From Escherichia phage teqskov, in the sequence record NC_054934.1: a DNA stretch of 64,000 nucleotides; one strand, given 5' to 3'. A program made the translations under genes and the position numbers. The number at the start of each line of letters is the position of its first letter. Position 1 is the first letter of the stretch. The notes beneath the pieces are model-generated. The model had not been told where the DNA came from. It saw nothing but the letters and a program-made list of their open reading frames with translations, and made no database searches. Positions 58,446-64,000 of this stretch are shown here, piece by piece.

Positions 58446-58714
58446 TGTTTGTCGTTCACACTATTTATGAAAATGAAGGTAATACTACGCGTGATTACGG
58501 TCACGTAAATCAATTCTTTAGATGCAATCCAGAATTCCGAGCTCAAAAAGACGAACGAATTTTTAAAAAATGTGTAGAGCAAGGTTTCATTTATATCAAG
58601 CACTGGATGCAAGGAAATAAAGTTAGAACTACATATCATAGGTCTTTAACTGAGCTTAATGATGAATTGATTTATAATAGAGCTGTAAATCAAACTCTGA
58701 AGGATGAACAATGA
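58445..58714 (+). CDS. hypothetical protein (89 aa)
   Basis: TAATG overlap; precedes ligase with ATGA overlap. Confidence 0.5.
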   Translation: MFVVHTIYENEGNTTRDYGHVNQFFRCNPEFRAQKDERIFKKCVEQGFIYIKHWMQGNKVRTTYHRSLTELNDELIYNRAVNQTLKDEQ

Positions 58715-60174
58715 TTCTTAAAATTCTGAATGAAATAGCATCTATTGGATCAACTAAGCAGAAGCAAGCAATTCTTGAAAAGAATAAAGATAATGAATTG
58801 CTTAAACGAGTATATCGTCTGACTTATTCTCGTGGGTTACAGTATTATATCAAGAAATGGCCTAAACCTGGTATTGCTACCCAGAGTTTTGGAATGCTGA
58901 CCATTACCGATATGCTTGATTTCATTGAATTCACGTTAGCTACTCGGAAATTGACTGGAAATGCTGCAATTGAGGAATTAACTGGATATATCACTGATGG
59001 TAAAAAGGATGATGTTGAAGTTTTGCGTCGAGTGATGATGCGAGACCTTGAATGCGGTGCTTCAGTATCTATTGCAAACAAAGTTTGGCCAGGTTTAATT
59101 CCTGAACAACCTCAAATGCTGGCAAGTTCTTATGATGAAAAGGGCATTAGTAAGAATATCAAGTTTCCAGCCTTTGCGCAGTTAAAAGCAGATGGAGCCC
59201 GGTGTTTTGCTGAAGTCCGAGGCGATGAATTAGATGATGTTCGTCTTTTATCACGAGCTGGTAATGAATATCTAGGATTAGATCTTCTTAAGGAAGAGTT
59301 AATCAAAATGACTGCTGAAGCCCGCCAGATTCATCCAGAAGGTGTGTTAATTGATGGCGAATTGGTATACCATGAGCAAGTTAAAAAGGAACCAGAAGGC
59401 CTAGATTTTCTTTTTGATGCTTATCCTGAAATTAGTAAAGCTAAAGAATTCGCCGAAGTAGCGGAATCTCGTACTACTTCTAATGGAATCGCCAATAAAT
59501 CCTTAAAAGGAACCATTTCTGAAAAAGAAGCTCAATGCATGAAGTTTCAGGTTTGGGATTATGTCCCGTTGGTAGAAATATACGGTCTTCCGGCGTTTCG
59601 TTTAAAATATGATGTACGTTTTTCTAAACTAGAACAAATGACATCAGGATATGATAAAGTAATTTTAATTGAAAACCAGGTAGTAAATAACCTAGATGAA
59701 GCTAAGGTAATTTATAAAAAGTATATTGACCAAGGTCTTGAAGGTATTATTCTCAAAAATATCGATGGATTATGGGAAAATGCTCGTTCAAAAAATCTCT
59801 ATAAATTTAAAGAAGTAATTGATGTTGATTTAAAAATTGTAGGAATTTATCCTCACCGTAAAGACCCTACTAAAGCAGGTGGATTTATTCTTGAATCAGA
59901 GTGTGGAAAAATTAAAGTAAATGCTGGTTCAGGCTTAAAAGATAAAGCCGGTGTAAAATCGCATGAACTTGACCGTACTCGCATTATGGAAAACCAAAAT
60001 TATTATATTGGAAAAATTCTAGAGTGCGAATGCAACGGTTGGTTAAAATCTGATGGCCGCACTGATTACGTTAAATTATTTCTTCCAATTGCGATTCGTT
60101 TACGCGAAGATAAAACTAAAGCTAACACATTTGAAGATGTATTCGGCGATTTTCATGAGGTAACTGGTCTATGA
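58711..60174 (+). CDS. 30: ATP-dependent DNA ligase gp30
   Basis: 487 aa (T4 DNA ligase length); adenylation motif region KADGAR; sequence recognised. Confidence 0.95.
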   Translation: MILKILNEIASIGSTKQKQAILEKNKDNELLKRVYRLTYSRGLQYYIKKWPKPGIATQSFGMLTITDMLDFIEFTLATRKLTGNAAIEELTGYITDGKKDDVEVLRRVMMRDLECGASVSIANKVWPGLIPEQPQMLASSYDEKGISKNIKFPAFAQLKADGARCFAEVRGDELDDVRLLSRAGNEYLGLDLLKEELIKMTAEARQIHPEGVLIDGELVYHEQVKKEPEGLDFLFDAYPEISKAKEFAEVAESRTTSNGIANKSLKGTISEKEAQCMKFQVWDYVPLVEIYGLPAFRLKYDVRFSKLEQMTSGYDKVILIENQVVNNLDEAKVIYKKYIDQGLEGIILKNIDGLWENARSKNLYKFKEVIDVDLKIVGIYPHRKDPTKAGGFILESECGKIKVNAGSGLKDKAGVKSHELDRTRIMENQNYYIGKILECECNGWLKSDGRTDYVKLFLPIAIRLREDKTKANTFEDVFGDFHEVTGL

Positions 60175-60359
60175 AAGCTTACTTAGAAACAATTGTCGTG
60201 GCTCAAAAAGAAGGTGGAGATGTTTCTACTTCTGTATCACAAATCATGATTGAATTTATAGATGCATATGCTTATAATAAATTCACAGAAACATTTGATG
60301 CCTATGAAAAAGGTCCAAAGTTTGAAATATATCGTACTCTCTTACCAATAGATTATTAA
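60171..60359 (+). CDS. hypothetical protein (62 aa)
   Basis: ATGA overlap with ligase stop. Confidence 0.5.
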   Translation: MKAYLETIVVAQKEGGDVSTSVSQIMIEFIDAYAYNKFTETFDAYEKGPKFEIYRTLLPIDY

Positions 60360-60380
60360 AGGCCTTCGGGCCTTTAATTT
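60358..60380 (+). terminator. hairpin terminator (UUCG loop)
   Basis: AAAGGCCTTCGGGCCTTT followed by A/T-rich run. Confidence 0.5.
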
Positions 60381-60388
60381 TATAAATA
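60381..60388 (+). promoter_or_regulatory. late promoter (TATAAATA) for alt
   Basis: Exact TATAAATA about 24 nt upstream of alt start. Confidence 0.55.
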
Positions 60389-60411
60389 GAATAAACATTA
60401 GAGAGGATATG

Positions 60412-62505
60412 ATGGAACTCATTACAGAATTATTTGACGAAGATACTACTCTTCCGATTACAAACTTAAATCCAAAGAAGAAAATACCACAAATTTTTTC
60501 AGTTCATGTTGATGACGCAATTGAACAACCAGGCTTTCGTTTATGCACGTATACATCTGGAGGTGATACTAATCGCGATTTAAAAATGGGCGATAAAATG
60601 ATGCATATCGTTCCTTTTACATTAACTGCAAAGGGGTCAATTGCTAAATTAAAGGGTCTTGGACCGAGTCCTATTAATTACATCAATTCAGTATTTACCG
60701 TAGCAATGCAAACAATGAAACAGTATAAAATTGATGCATGTATGCTACGCATTCTTAAATCTAAAACAGCCGGTCAATCTCGACAAATTCAACTTATTGC
60801 AGATAGACTCATCCGTAGTCGTTCAGGCGGTAGATACGTCCTTCTTAAGGAACTCTGGGATTACGATAAAAAGTATGCATATATTCTTATACATCGCAAA
60901 AATGTATCACTAGAAGACATTCCAGGAGTTCCGGAAATTAGTACAGAGCTCTTTACTAAAGTTGAATCGAAGGTCGGTGATGTTTATATCAATAAAGATA
61001 CTGGGGCTCAAGTAACTAAAAATGAGGCAATTGCAGCATCAATTGCACAAGAAAATGATAAGCGTTCTGACCAAGCTGTTATTACTAAAGTTAAAATTTC
61101 CCGTAGAGCAATTGCACAAAGTCAGTCATTGGAATCTTCTAGATTTGAAAGTGAATTATTCCAGAAGTATGAATCTACGGCAGCTAATTTTAATAAACCA
61201 GCTACTGCACCTTTAATTCCCGAAGCAGAAGAAATGAAAATTGGAATTAATTCATTAGCTTCTAAAACAAAGGCAGCAAAAATTATTGCTGAAGGAACGG
61301 CAGATGAACTTCATTATGATTATAAATTCTTTCCGCTGAGTCGGGTTGGTGAAGTTTCTGAAAAAATTAAAGATACAATTCTACATGCTATTAAAAATGA
61401 GCCAACTACCTCAATAAAATGTTTAGAAAAATACGCAGCAGCAGTTAATTCACTTTTTGATGAATACAAAGATAGTTGGCTTGCTAAACACAATAAAAAT
61501 CGCAAAGGTCAACCTGACGAAGTTTGGGAAGAATTGACTAAAAATGCTTGGAATGCGGCAAAAACTAAATTTCTTAAACGAATGATATACAGTTTCTCTG
61601 GCGTAGGAGCTGGTCCTATGATTGATATTACAATCGCTCGTGATGGTTCTAAATATACTCCATCACAAAAGAGAGGTATTAGAGAATACTGTGGATCAGG
61701 GTATACTGACATCAATAATCTTCTTTTGGGTCGTTATGATCCAGAACGTTATGAAGTAATGAGTGAAAAAGAAATTGAAGCTGCTATAACTAATTTAGAT
61801 TCTGCTTTTGAAAATGGTGATCGTATACCAGAAGGCATTACAGTTTATCGTGCTCAGAGTATGACTGCTCCTATATACGAAGCTTTAGTTAAAAATAAAG
61901 TGTTCTACTTCAGAAATTTTGTATCTACTTCTTTAACTCCTATCATTTTTGGACGTTTTGGAATCACACATGCTGGTATTGGTCTTTTAGAACCAGAAGC
62001 TCGCAATGAATTAACAGTTGATAAAAATGAAGAAGGAATAACTATTAATCCAAACGAAATAAGAGCGTATAAAGAAAATCCTGAATACGTTAAAGTTCAA
62101 ATAGGATGGGCAATTGATGGAGCTCATAAAGTTAATGTTGTATATCCAGGAAGTCTCGGAATAGCAACAGAAGCTGAAGTTATTCTACCGCGTGGATTGA
62201 TGGTCAAAGTTAATAAAATAACTGATGCTTCTAATAATGACGGAACAACATCTAATAATACAAAACTCATTCAAGCTGAAGTTATGACCACGGAAGAGCT
62301 CACCGAATCGGTAATCTATGATGGAGACCATTTAATGGAAACTGGTGAATTGGTTGCAATGACAGGTGATATTGAAATAGAAGACAGAGTTGACTTTGCA
62401 TCATTTGTTTCATCAAACGTTAAACAGAAAGTAGAATCATCTCTTGGAATTATTGCGTCTTGCATAGATATTACAAACATGCCTTACAAGTTCGTTCAAG
62501 GATAA
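60412..62505 (+). CDS. alt: Alt ADP-ribosyltransferase (virion-packaged)
   Basis: 697 aa; C-terminal ART triad (YRAQ, STS, EAEVILP); N-terminal MELITELF region; late promoter. Confidence 0.85.
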   Translation: MELITELFDEDTTLPITNLNPKKKIPQIFSVHVDDAIEQPGFRLCTYTSGGDTNRDLKMGDKMMHIVPFTLTAKGSIAKLKGLGPSPINYINSVFTVAMQTMKQYKIDACMLRILKSKTAGQSRQIQLIADRLIRSRSGGRYVLLKELWDYDKKYAYILIHRKNVSLEDIPGVPEISTELFTKVESKVGDVYINKDTGAQVTKNEAIAASIAQENDKRSDQAVITKVKISRRAIAQSQSLESSRFESELFQKYESTAANFNKPATAPLIPEAEEMKIGINSLASKTKAAKIIAEGTADELHYDYKFFPLSRVGEVSEKIKDTILHAIKNEPTTSIKCLEKYAAAVNSLFDEYKDSWLAKHNKNRKGQPDEVWEELTKNAWNAAKTKFLKRMIYSFSGVGAGPMIDITIARDGSKYTPSQKRGIREYCGSGYTDINNLLLGRYDPERYEVMSEKEIEAAITNLDSAFENGDRIPEGITVYRAQSMTAPIYEALVKNKVFYFRNFVSTSLTPIIFGRFGITHAGIGLLEPEARNELTVDKNEEGITINPNEIRAYKENPEYVKVQIGWAIDGAHKVNVVYPGSLGIATEAEVILPRGLMVKVNKITDASNNDGTTSNNTKLIQAEVMTTEELTESVIYDGDHLMETGELVAMTGDIEIEDRVDFASFVSSNVKQKVESSLGIIASCIDITNMPYKFVQG

Positions 62506-62508
62506 ATC

Positions 62509-64000
62509 ATGGAACTTATTACAGAATTATTTGACGGCGCTTCGGCGCCGGTTGTTAACTTAAATCCTAAGCATAAAATACCACAAATTTTTGCTATTCA
62601 AGCCGGTGAAGAAAGCGTTCTTCCTGGATTTAGATTTTGTACATACACCTCTGGCGGTGATACGAATAAAAACGTTAAGCCAGGCGACAAAATGATGCAT
62701 ATCGTAATGATAGGTGTCAACGAGAAATTATCGTTAGTCAAGCTTAGAAACTTGGGTGGAAATCCAATTGGCGTCATTAATGCTGTTTTTGATACTGCTC
62801 TTCAAACAATGAAACAGTATAAAATCGACGCATGCCTATTCCGCGTACTAAAAAGTAAAACAAACGGCGCAGCTCGTCAAATGCAAGTTATTGCTGACCG
62901 TTTAGTACGTACTAAAGGAGCAGGTCGATATGTTCTTTTAAAGGAAATCTGGGACTATGATAAGAAATATGCATATATTATGGTTTACCGTAAAAATGCC
63001 AATTTAGAAGACATTCCAGGTGTACCTCCTATTTCAACTGAGTTATTCACAAAAGTTGAATCAAAGGTTGGTGATGTTTATGTAGACGTTAAAACAGGTA
63101 ATGCTGTTCCTAAAGCTGTCGCTGTTGCTGCTTCTATTGCTTTAGAAAATGATAAGCGCACGGATCAAGCTGTTATTCAGAAAACTAAAATTAGTCGTCG
63201 ATTAGCAGCACAAGCTCAATATTCTACTGTTGATGCTTCACTTCAGGGTGATAGCTTCGCTGCTAAGAAATATCAAGAGTTTGAATCTAAAGTTCCGGTA
63301 TATAAAGCAGAAGGTCCGATGAACTCTGGCGTTATTCAGATTGGTTCAAACTTTAGCAAAGGAGCTATCGGTGGTATGAGAAGTGCTTCTCGTTTTAAAT
63401 CTAACGATTATGAACTAGAAAGTTTCCGAAATCATATTGCATTGGCCCATGCACGTTTACGTGATCCATCTATCAAGTTGCAGAGCGATATAACATATCA
63501 AGGTTCTCAAGAATATTTAAAGAATAAAGAATTCTTTGATTATAAAACTGATAAAATTTTAAGCGATCTTGCTGACATTAATATTTCTAATAGCTTTGAT
63601 GTTATTAAGAAAATTATCAATGATTTAGTTAAAGGTTCTAAAGCTACACCAGATGAAAAGACAGCTATTATTCAATTTGTCATGAATGGCATTTATAAAT
63701 TGATTAATGAATCTGCCGCCCAGGCATATGAATACGCAAGCACTGAAGTAACTCCAAAAGGATTAACTCAGGCTGAGTCTGATGTAATTGAAGATTATTG
63801 TGCAGATTCATATGTTGAAATGAACTCGTTCCTTTTAGGTAAACCTGATTCTACCCGTGAAGAATATATGGAACGAGCTATTAAACACATCGAGACGTTG
63901 GATTCTGCATTTGCTAAAGGTTCAGTTCTTCCTCCAGGAACTACTCTTTATCGTGGGCAAGAAGTTACCTTTAAAACTTTGCGTCATAACATTGAAAATA
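62509..64000 (+). CDS. Alt-like ADP-ribosyltransferase paralogue (3' end beyond window)
   Basis: N-terminal 230 aa closely parallel to alt (MELITELFD...KIPQIF...CTYTSGGDTN...KMMHIV); ART Arg motif LYRGQ near window end. Confidence 0.75.
   Translation, partial: MELITELFDGASAPVVNLNPKHKIPQIFAIQAGEESVLPGFRFCTYTSGGDTNKNVKPGDKMMHIVMIGVNEKLSLVKLRNLGGNPIGVINAVFDTALQTMKQYKIDACLFRVLKSKTNGAARQMQVIADRLVRTKGAGRYVLLKEIWDYDKKYAYIMVYRKNANLEDIPGVPPISTELFTKVESKVGDVYVDVKTGNAVPKAVAVAASIALENDKRTDQAVIQKTKISRRLAAQAQYSTVDASLQGDSFAAKKYQEFESKVPVYKAEGPMNSGVIQIGSNFSKGAIGGMRSASRFKSNDYELESFRNHIALAHARLRDPSIKLQSDITYQGSQEYLKNKEFFDYKTDKILSDLADINISNSFDVIKKIINDLVKGSKATPDEKTAIIQFVMNGIYKLINESAAQAYEYASTEVTPKGLTQAESDVIEDYCADSYVEMNSFLLGKPDSTREEYMERAIKHIETLDSAFAKGSVLPPGTTLYRGQEVTFKTLRHNIEN

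Follow-up and report, generated by a model that had tools for sequence, protein, structure and literature searches.

Organization of the alt locus

The window, i.e., the whole 64,000-nt stretch of Escherichia phage teqskov DNA (NC_054934.1) that was analysed, comes from a Tequatrovirus (T4-like) genome and ends within a tandem pair of genes, referred to here as alt-A and alt-B. The features of the locus are as follows.

60171-60359, plus strand: alt.1-like small ORF of 62 aa, between the DNA ligase gene 30 and alt (PHROG 1976, E=1.2e-34)
60355-60378, plus strand: terminator-like hairpin upstream of alt, with a 10-bp stem and a UUCG loop, followed by UUUUAU
60381-60388, plus strand: TATAAATA, match to the T4 late-promoter consensus, directly after the hairpin and 23 nt ahead of the alt-A ATG
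60412-62505, plus strand: alt-A, T4 Alt orthologue, 697 aa (ATG 60412, TAA 62503-62505; alternative in-frame ATG at 60409)
60412-60429, plus strand: alt-A N-terminal propeptide MELITE, terminating in the gp21 cleavage motif I-T-E6
60430-61125, plus strand: alt-A N-domain, residues 7-238, common to alt-B
61126-61641, plus strand: middle region of alt-A (residues 239-410), all-helical in the AF2 model and without conservation in alt-B
61642-62271, plus strand: alt-A ART catalytic domain, residues 411-620 (R480, S505-T-S507, E587-A-E589)
62299-62307, plus strand: alt-A C-terminal gp21 cleavage motif L630-T-E632, counterpart of T4 Alt LTE-619
62308-62502, plus strand: alt-A C-terminal propeptide of 65 aa, beginning SVIYDGDHLMETGE, aligned to T4 Alt
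62509-64000, plus strand: second Alt paralogue (alt-B), an ORF that exceeds the window, with 497 of its roughly 685 codons inside
62509-62526, plus strand: MELITE propeptide at the alt-B N-terminus, carrying I-T-E6 and matching residues 1-6 of alt-A exactly
62527-63219, plus strand: alt-B N-domain, residues 7-237
63754-64000, plus strand: start of the alt-B ART domain, with the catalytic Arg motif Y481-R482 at 63949-63954

The genomic position is that of the T4 Alt family, with the ligase gene and alt.1 upstream in the window (the T6 and T2 annotations name alt.1 at the place of the small ORF), while alt.-3/gene 54 was observed downstream of the alt genes in phage 132, T2 and T6. Neither tRNA genes nor Rfam families were found anywhere in the window. 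The alt-A product shares 96% amino acid identity with T4 Alt and matches Pfam PF03496 (ADPrib_exo_Tox) over residues 378-627 at 1.1e-36. Its catalytic elements are encoded at 61849-61851 (R480), 61924-61932 (S505-T-S507) and 62170-62178 (E587-A-E589), and its C-terminal propeptide is the lowest-confidence part of the AF2 model.

The alt-B gene begins with an ATG at 62509 after a 3-nt spacer from the alt-A stop, in agreement with the initial annotation, which placed the second start 4 nt after the first stop, and an AAGGA Shine-Dalgarno sequence lies ahead of it (62497-62501). A check for stop codons and frameshifts found the frame open for all 497 codons to the window end; alt-B is intact in this phage as far as it is readable, its end lying beyond the window. 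Over these codons the protein is 100% identical to the phage 132 copy, with 27 nucleotide differences, all synonymous, and 492 of 497 residues are identical to the T2 and T6 copies. PF03496 matches the in-window part at residues 416-489 (E=1.4e-9). The initial annotation had both ORFs ending in ART motifs, which holds for all three elements of alt-A, whereas in alt-B only the Arg motif falls inside the window. The S-T-S and E-x-E motifs of alt-B lie beyond base 64000 and were seen only in the orthologues of phage 132, T2 and T6, all intact at 685 aa, which carry S507-T-S509 and E587-A-E589 together with R482.

Both proteins match PHROG 802 ('Alt-like RNA polymerase ADP-ribosyltransferase') over their full length, alt-B at 1.5e-179, and NCBIfam has no model for either. 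Tandem alt paralogues, as first proposed from the letters of the stretch, are thus what the locus holds, and hundreds of Tequatrovirus records annotate both genes as Alt-like.

Upstream signals and expression

The hairpin upstream of alt folds as RNA at -13.5 kcal/mol (z = -2.95). It was not called by a simple terminator scan of the window, and sigma-70 and terminator scans gave background levels. A conserved terminator upstream of alt was described in 5 of 6 T4-like genomes (Nolan 2006, PMC1524935). The late promoter that the initial annotation saw ahead of alt-A is present as a TATAAATA match 23 nt from the ATG, but the motif is not enriched in the window (8 copies vs 9.3 expected), hence the weight rests on its intergenic position and on the status of T4 alt, a documented late gene (PMC9697503). 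A pattern search found no TATAAATA ahead of alt-B; because of this and of the 3-nt spacing, co-transcription with alt-A is the simplest reading. Late expression of both genes, also put forward initially, is therefore plausible, with the promoter itself a predicted one.

Divergence of the two paralogues

The pairwise alignment and the comparison with T4 Alt that had been proposed as checks were run. Compared with full-length alt-B, alt-A shows 41% identity (BLASTP, E=5e-160), a similarity that, judged from this alignment, is far above chance. It is unevenly distributed: residues 1-6 are 100% identical and residues 7-238 are 66% identical, while identity falls to 20% over residues 239-410 and stands at 38% in the ART domain and 42% in the C-terminal tail. 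In a multiple alignment, the helical middle retains only 7% identity, and the loops between S-T-S and E-x-E are unrelated. All six N-terminal strings quoted in the initial annotation as shared were recovered, and its statement that the C-terminal halves differ is borne out by these values.

Over the N-domain (residues 7-238), alt-A and alt-B differ with pS 0.69, dS ~1.95 and dN 0.29. The first ~30 codons are unusually alike at the DNA level (79% nucleotide identity, pS 0.36). Since the synonymous sites of the N-domain are near saturation, its likeness points to selection and not to recent gene conversion, which was rejected as its cause. On these grounds, alt-B is taken to be an old paralogue under selection.

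Survey of the N-domain family

Relatives of the N-domain were collected by searching a profile against a representative library, which gave 74 clusters in 1.84 billion representatives; this library was used instead of another homologue search with the same profile, which returned only 7 proteins, mostly truncated. The domain is N-terminal in every profile match, and its precomputed annotation in the relatives is PF26846. A Pfam-detectable ART domain accompanies it in 58 of 63 members. Among the proteins lacking a detectable one, P0071, P0077 and probably P0076 look like degenerate ARTs and P0073 has no match; for these exceptions, neither relatives in the PDB nor occurrences in the phage collection were found. 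The sequence search gave no clear example of the N-domain joined to a non-ART effector. Candidate remote fold matches in BFVD comprise, among others, proteins with the names zeta toxin, deaminase and ParB/Srx, and a PDB search with the N-domain model gave weak GNAT-like matches only.

N-domains group by phage lineage (genus) in 1000 of 1000 bootstrap quartets. The quartets built from the middle plus ART region and from the C-propeptide group by type across genera, again in 1000 of 1000 bootstraps, which places the A/B split before the Tequatrovirus-Dhakavirus split. The exchange of ART types on a lineage-specific N-domain is clear, and on the strength of these groupings the alt genes evolve as a mosaic. 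The N-domain therefore tracks the phage lineage and not the effector, as expected if its partner is a phage component.

Cleavage motifs and probable head packaging

T4 Alt is trimmed by the prohead protease gp21 at ITE-6, with the loss of six N-terminal residues, and at LTE-619, a cut mapped by mass spectrometry that removes 63 C-terminal residues (PMC5694885). Each head contains ~40 copies of it, which reach the cell together with the DNA, and phages can do without alt under laboratory conditions (PMC9026906). Its substrates include Arg265 of RNA polymerase alpha and other host proteins (PMC2988021).

Motifs of the gp21 type, (L/I)-x-E, occur in alt-A as ITE6 and LTE632 and in alt-B as ITE6 within the window and LEE631 in the orthologues, the C-terminal site lying ~55-65 residues from the C-terminus. 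Among the 63 family members, the N-terminal site has L or I at position 4 in 54 and E at position 6 in 58, and the C-terminal site has L or I at position 630 in 52 and E at position 632 in 59, to be compared with the catalytic residues R480 (57/63) and E589 (59/63). The C-propeptide start carries YDGDxLMETGE, conserved in the paralogues. Because the cleavage-site Glu is as conserved as the catalytic residues and both motifs are kept in alt-B, packaging of both proteins is indirectly supported. The conditional suggestion of the initial annotation, that two different ARTs would be injected if the shared N-terminus targets the capsid, gains the same indirect support, to which the evolution of the N-domain with the phage lineage adds. 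Literature searches on Alt-B, as far as the papers were searchable, turned up neither proteomic data, from virions or otherwise, nor biochemistry.

Distribution of alt-B and its remnant in T4

The alt-B gene occurs in about 395 phage records (>=95% amino acid identity). The tandem pair is already known, its paralogy with T4 alt.-1/alt.-2 having been pointed out in 2006 by Nolan et al., who called these two ORFs paralogous duplications of alt (PMC1524935). At 95-97% identity, T4 alt.-1/alt.-2 align with two parts of alt-B, nucleotides 1-348 and the final ~20 nt, and alt-B is matched by the corresponding PHROGs, 23015 (1e-40) and 15247 (7e-38). From this alignment, T4 alt.-1/alt.-2 is read as a deletion remnant of alt-B, which in T4 has lost ~1.69 kb internally and is frameshifted near codon 54. 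The deletion junction is found in 91 records, and records with alt-B are about four times as many.

Proposed role of the two genes

The locus probably encodes two paralogous mono-ADP-ribosyltransferases of the T4 Alt family that are packaged in the head and injected. The identity and paralogy of the genes, the conservation of their motifs, the purifying selection and the mosaic evolution are observed, alt-A being the T4 Alt orthologue and alt-B the intact form of an old second paralogue that is kept in T2, T6 and most Tequatrovirus; for alt-B, we infer packaging, processing, catalytic activity and targets of its own. A single late message from the promoter upstream of alt-A would serve both genes, with alt-B translated from its own Shine-Dalgarno sequence. 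Entry of both proteins into the prohead core would depend on the N-terminal module that they share, made up of the 6-residue propeptide and the ~230-residue N-domain, perhaps with the C-propeptide as well; the N-domain would act as a prohead-targeting module, and both proteins would be trimmed by gp21 at I-T-E6 and at the L-x-E near the C-terminus. The mature enzymes would then be ejected with the DNA and modify different host targets, as suggested by their unrelated helical middles and S-T-S to E-x-E loops. The modification of Arg265 by T4 Alt affects one of the RNA polymerase alpha subunits, and at 96% identity the same target is expected for alt-A. T4 and at least 91 other records do without alt-B and alt is non-essential, hence alt-B may add little in the laboratory.

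A broader and more tentative proposal, which we hold to be somewhat short of an even chance, is that the N-domain and the two gp21-cleaved propeptides form a lineage-specific head-loading cassette for ART warheads exchanged by recombination. In that case, infection by natural Tequatrovirus phages such as T2, T6 and the present one would deliver two or more ARTs that differ in their host targets, and the second might act on a host defence or translation factor.

Alternative explanations

It is unlikely that Alt-B is made late and left out of the head, acting in the producing cell, e.g., on host or phage proteins late in infection, or that the N-domain has another use such as target binding or auto-inhibition until cleavage. 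Both gp21 motifs and YDGDxLMETGE are kept, which is sensible only inside the prohead; moreover, Tequatrovirus and Dhakavirus N-domains are 42-48% identical even though E. coli is a host of both, and within a genome the N-domain is homogenised among paralogues. This genus difference and the homogenisation within genomes argue for a phage partner rather than a host partner. Somewhat less probable still is that alt-B has no function distinct from that of alt-A, being a superfluous copy that decays towards the pseudogene found in T4. The deletion remnant in T4 and 91 records, the dispensability of alt in the laboratory (PMC9026906) and the truncated family members that are common in databases would fit such a decay. 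However, two phages show 0 non-synonymous vs 27 synonymous differences over 497 codons, T2, T6 and phage 132 retain the residues for catalysis and cleavage, the B type is conserved across genera (47/56/65% to Dhakavirus copy 3), and the gene outnumbers its deletion about four to one in the records. The middle and the S-T-S to E-x-E loops unrelated to those of alt-A further speak against simple redundancy.

The N-terminal likeness could also be a mere trace of recent duplication or gene conversion, uninformative on function, which we consider very improbable. It would account for the similarity of the first ~30 codons (79% nucleotide identity, pS 0.36), and the N-domains of Dhakavirus copies 2 and 3, with ~90% amino acid and ~80% nucleotide identity, indicate that conversion does occur in the Alt family. 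Against it stand the pS, dS and dN values over residues 7-238: with synonymous sites near saturation, any homogenisation is old and the likeness has since been held by purifying selection.

Significance

As a genome feature, the pair is ordinary: hundreds of Tequatrovirus genomes, T2 and T6 among them, have it annotated. To our knowledge, T4, which is without the second enzyme, is the only source of biochemical work on injected phage ARTs. Should Alt-B turn out to be packaged and to have targets of its own, infection by most natural T-even phages would open with ADP-ribosylation by two enzymes. In that case, the alt locus, which holds 1-3 copies and whose warheads are swapped between genera, would be a variable locus for host takeover or counter-defence, like the IP locus. 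Should the cassette proposal be true, half of the injected ART repertoire escaped notice in forty years of T4 research, the second gene being deleted there.

Comparison with known systems

The likeness of alt-A to T4 Alt, an internal head protein and NAD+:arginine mono-ADP-ribosyltransferase, extends to its position after gene 30 and alt.1, the ITE-6 and LTE motifs and the R-S-E catalytic residues. alt-B is built like T4 Alt, beginning with the propeptide and continuing through N-domain, helical middle and ART domain to L-x-E and the C-propeptide, but is 41% identical overall, with an unalignable middle and other S-T-S to E-x-E loops. In T4 itself, alt.-1 and alt.-2 are hypothetical proteins of 61 and 67 aa that derive from the same gene as alt-B, and the T6 record labels the intact alt-B gene as 'alt.-2 ... 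apparent insertion'.

In the Dhakavirus phages UGJNEcP4, 04086, WG01 and MX01, the locus similarly lies between ligase and alt.-3/gene 54, with the alt genes arranged head-to-tail 3-8 nt apart, but it holds three copies vs two here. Copy 3 is of the B type, with 47% (middle), 56% (ART) and 65% (C-propeptide) identity to alt-B, and copy 1 or 2 is of the A type. The Dhakavirus N-domains are a separate, lineage-specific version.

T4 ModA and ModB are small, unpackaged enzymes of the early phase and are without the Alt N-domain, and the bacterial C3/VIP2/iota-type ARTs have other delivery domains and no Alt N-domain; outside the ART core, no PDB sequence matches were found. The MuF-fused head-packaged ARTs (Iyer et al. 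2022) carry an N-terminal MuF (SPP1 gp7-like) domain, for which alt-A and alt-B gave no Pfam match, and the T4 genomic context was handled as a case separate from the MuF-fused ARTs (PMC9503650). In polymorphic-toxin-like modular effectors, one constant delivery domain is combined with swappable toxin domains that are unrelated to one another; for the Alt N-domain, the partner is an ART in 58 of 63 members, with exchange among ART types.

[quoted passage not shown] The IP targeting sequence, however, is a removed propeptide of ~10 residues with no sequence relationship to Alt, whereas in the Alt proteins a folded N-domain of ~230 residues is retained after maturation, and there is a second propeptide at the C-terminus.

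Organization and expression of the tandem alt genes

The two adjacent alt ORFs, A and B, lie downstream of the DNA ligase gene. The elements of the locus are listed below, together with a group of long ORFs on the opposite strand, whose sizes we take to be those of the T4 tail-fibre genes 37-34.

58711-60174, + strand: DNA ligase gene 30, identity from annotated orthologues
60171-60359, + strand: alt.1-like ORF, 62 aa
60355-60378, + strand: hairpin, 10-bp stem with UUCG, then UUUUAU (-13.5 kcal/mol, z = -2.95)
60381-60388, + strand: TATAAATA, placed where expected for alt
60412-62505, + strand: ORF A, 697 aa, ATG at 60412, stop at 62503-62505
62497-62501, + strand: Shine-Dalgarno AAGGA upstream of B
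3 nt, + strand: spacer between ORF A and ORF B
62509-64000, + strand: ORF B, ATG at 62509, open to the window end, 497 codons
27327-36299, - strand: long ORFs of 1080, 221, 371 and 1289 aa

The 4-kb stretch has matches in 541 phage records, all T4-like (Tequatrovirus), 277 of which show at least 80% coverage at more than 90% nucleotide identity; in most of them, two neighbouring genes are annotated as "Alt-like RNA polymerase ADP-ribosyltransferase". Over its 497 visible residues, B matches the second gene of phage 132 (685 aa) at 100% amino acid identity, the 27 nucleotide differences between them all being synonymous; 492/497 residues are identical in the T2 and T6 counterparts. A B gene with ≥95% amino acid identity occurs in about 395 records. 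Pairwise comparison bears out the paralogy proposed in the initial annotation: A matches T4 Alt at 96% identity, A and full-length B (the phage 132 sequence) share 41% identity by BLASTP (E = 5e-160), and the strings quoted as shared were all found in both ORFs.

Both ORFs were also said to end in catalytic motifs of ADP-ribosyltransferases (ARTs). This holds for A (R480, S505-T-S507, E587-A-E589); B shows only Y481-R482 (63949-63954) within the window, hence the claim is partly checkable here, and its remainder comes from the B orthologues of T2, T6 and phage 132, which carry S507-T-S509 and E587-A-E589 and have no internal stops. The tandem arrangement is thus real and confirmed in part, since the catalytic core of B lies outside the window. 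In related (C3-like) ARTs, substrate-recognition loops sit between S-T-S and E-x-E; in one part of this region (A residues 538-567), A-B identity falls to 10%.

In T4, alt is late in both transcript and protein (PMC9697503). The frequency of TATAAATA is at chance level (8 in the window, 9.3 expected). A pattern search of the window found no further TATAAATA ahead of B, so that co-transcription of A and B would be the simplest reading. The start of alt-A contains two in-frame ATGs (ATGATG, 60409-60414), and the upstream ribosome-binding GAGG is 2 nt away from the first ATG and 5 nt away from the second, the latter matching the annotated T4 start (MELITE). No tRNA genes or Rfam families at gathering score were found in the window (1-64000).

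Packaging and cleavage motifs

T4 Alt belongs to the prohead core, with about 40 copies per head (PMC9026906). It is cut by the prohead protease gp21 at ITE-6 and LTE-619, with the loss of 63 C-terminal residues (PMC5694885). Both motifs are kept in A (ITE6 and LTE632); in B, ITE6 lies in the window and orthologues carry LEE631, followed by SVYDGDHLMETGE. An N-domain profile search of 1.84 billion representative proteins returned 74 matches, 62 of which were aligned with A (n=63). The N-domain is N-terminal in every case, 58/63 members have a Pfam-detectable ART domain, and conservation at the cleavage sites equals that of the catalytic residues.

Residue conservation in the 63-member alignment
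Position 4: L 45/63, I 9/63
Position 6: E 58/63
Position 630: L 34/63, I 18/63
Position 632: E 59/63
R480: 57/63
S507: 61/63
E589: 59/63

The initial interpretation, in which a shared capsid-targeting N-terminus would allow two different effectors to be injected, is supported within the reach of sequence analysis. Searches of BFVD with the N-domain fold gave, beyond Alt homologues, remote matches to large uncharacterised phage proteins (E 1e-7 to 1e-4, TM ~0.5), with names including zeta toxin, deaminase and ParB/Srx, a lead hinting that the N-domain may have a broader delivery role.

Several relatives depart from the common pattern. In P0071 and P0077 the core is ART-like, but its catalytic residues are changed (YK for YR; SCS or CS). 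The C-terminal parts of the remote metagenomic members P0073 (541 aa) and P0076 (1142 aa) matched nothing in Pfam or the PDB and lack counterparts in the phage collection. Three Alt fragments filed as Enterococcus faecalis and E. coli (P0005, P0006 and P0007; 0.4-1 kb contigs) probably reflect contamination by a T4-like phage or bacterial assemblies that include short phage contigs. Just upstream of alt in Aeromonas phage 25, ORF178c (L006:5041-5946) is a 301-aa ART-only paralogue with WRGMS, FVSTSF and ECEVIL motifs and without the Alt N-domain, and would represent a relative at the alt locus that is not packaged.

Selection and mosaic evolution

Region-wise amino acid identity of A and B, numbered on A residues
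1-6: 100%
N-domain, 7-238: 66% (pS 0.69, dS ~1.95, dN 0.29)
Middle, 239-410: 20% (7% in multiple alignment)
ART, 411-620: 38%
C-terminal tail: 42%

The N-terminal likeness of A and B could stem from recent conversion or from constraint. The N-domain substitution values rule out recent conversion and argue for purifying selection maintaining the likeness of an old duplicate. The first ~30 codons (60412-60501 in alt-A, 62509-62595 in alt-B) are much more alike in DNA sequence (79% nucleotide identity, pS 0.36) than the remaining N-domain (pS ~0.6-1.0), possibly through a short conversion tract or 5′ mRNA constraint.

Quartet bootstrapping was applied to TeqA and TeqB (A and B) and two Dhakavirus proteins, an A-type copy and copy 3. 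N-domain columns placed TeqA with TeqB (1000/1000 bootstraps), whereas middle+ART and C-propeptide columns grouped the proteins by effector type across genera (1000/1000). N-domain identity is 66% between TeqA and TeqB, 42-48% between Tequatrovirus and Dhakavirus and 61-89% among Dhakavirus paralogues, while Dhakavirus copy 3 and TeqB share 47% in the middle region, 56% in the ART domain and 65% in the C-propeptide. These groupings and identities argue that the A/B split predates that of the two genera. Within each lineage, the N-domain has been homogenised or has co-evolved, which fits a putative module docking to a phage-specific partner.

Individual Dhakavirus genes show similar mosaicism. 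Copies 2 and 3 of UGJNEcP4 (L005:2952-7121) are ~90% identical in amino acids and ~80% in nucleotides up to residue ~240, beyond which identity drops sharply to 10-30%; a breakpoint at the conserved KISRR ending the N-domain suggests N-domain homogenisation or effector replacement. In phage 04086, the ART domain of copy 2 (L004:3388-5466) is close to that of TeqA (82-98% amino acid, 80-94% nucleotide identity), whereas its flanks are distant (N-domain 30-57%, C-terminal tail ~50%), a pattern suggestive of recent exchange between genera confined to the catalytic ART module. The third alt of this phage (L004:6209-8032) has its annotated start within the N-domain and one ambiguous residue (X), suggesting misassembly or 5′ truncation of the gene. 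This mosaic evolution goes beyond the original finding.

Comparison with T4 and other phages

Where teqskov has alt-B, T4 has alt.-1 (61 aa) and alt.-2 (67 aa). In T4_ev151 (L002:5092-5477), these two ORFs align at 95% identity with nt 1-348 of alt-B, are frameshifted near codon 54 and run straight into the final ~20 nt of the gene. The junction implies a ~1.69-kb deletion that left alt.-1 and alt.-2 as the remnant of alt-B. The same junction occurs in 91 phage records. Because the gene is deleted in T4, work based on T4 has been blind to the possible packaging of the second enzyme and to its modification targets.

The tandem feature itself is already known and annotated. The gene is intact in T2 and T6, the T6 record describing an "apparent insertion in alt.-2; also similar to alt". 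Nolan et al. (2006) classed alt.-1/alt.-2 of T4 and ORFs like them as paralogous duplications of alt and reported a full-length alt duplicate in phage 44RR (PMC1524935). Dhakavirus phages carry three alt copies in tandem. Tandem alt genes are thus common, T4 being the derived exception.
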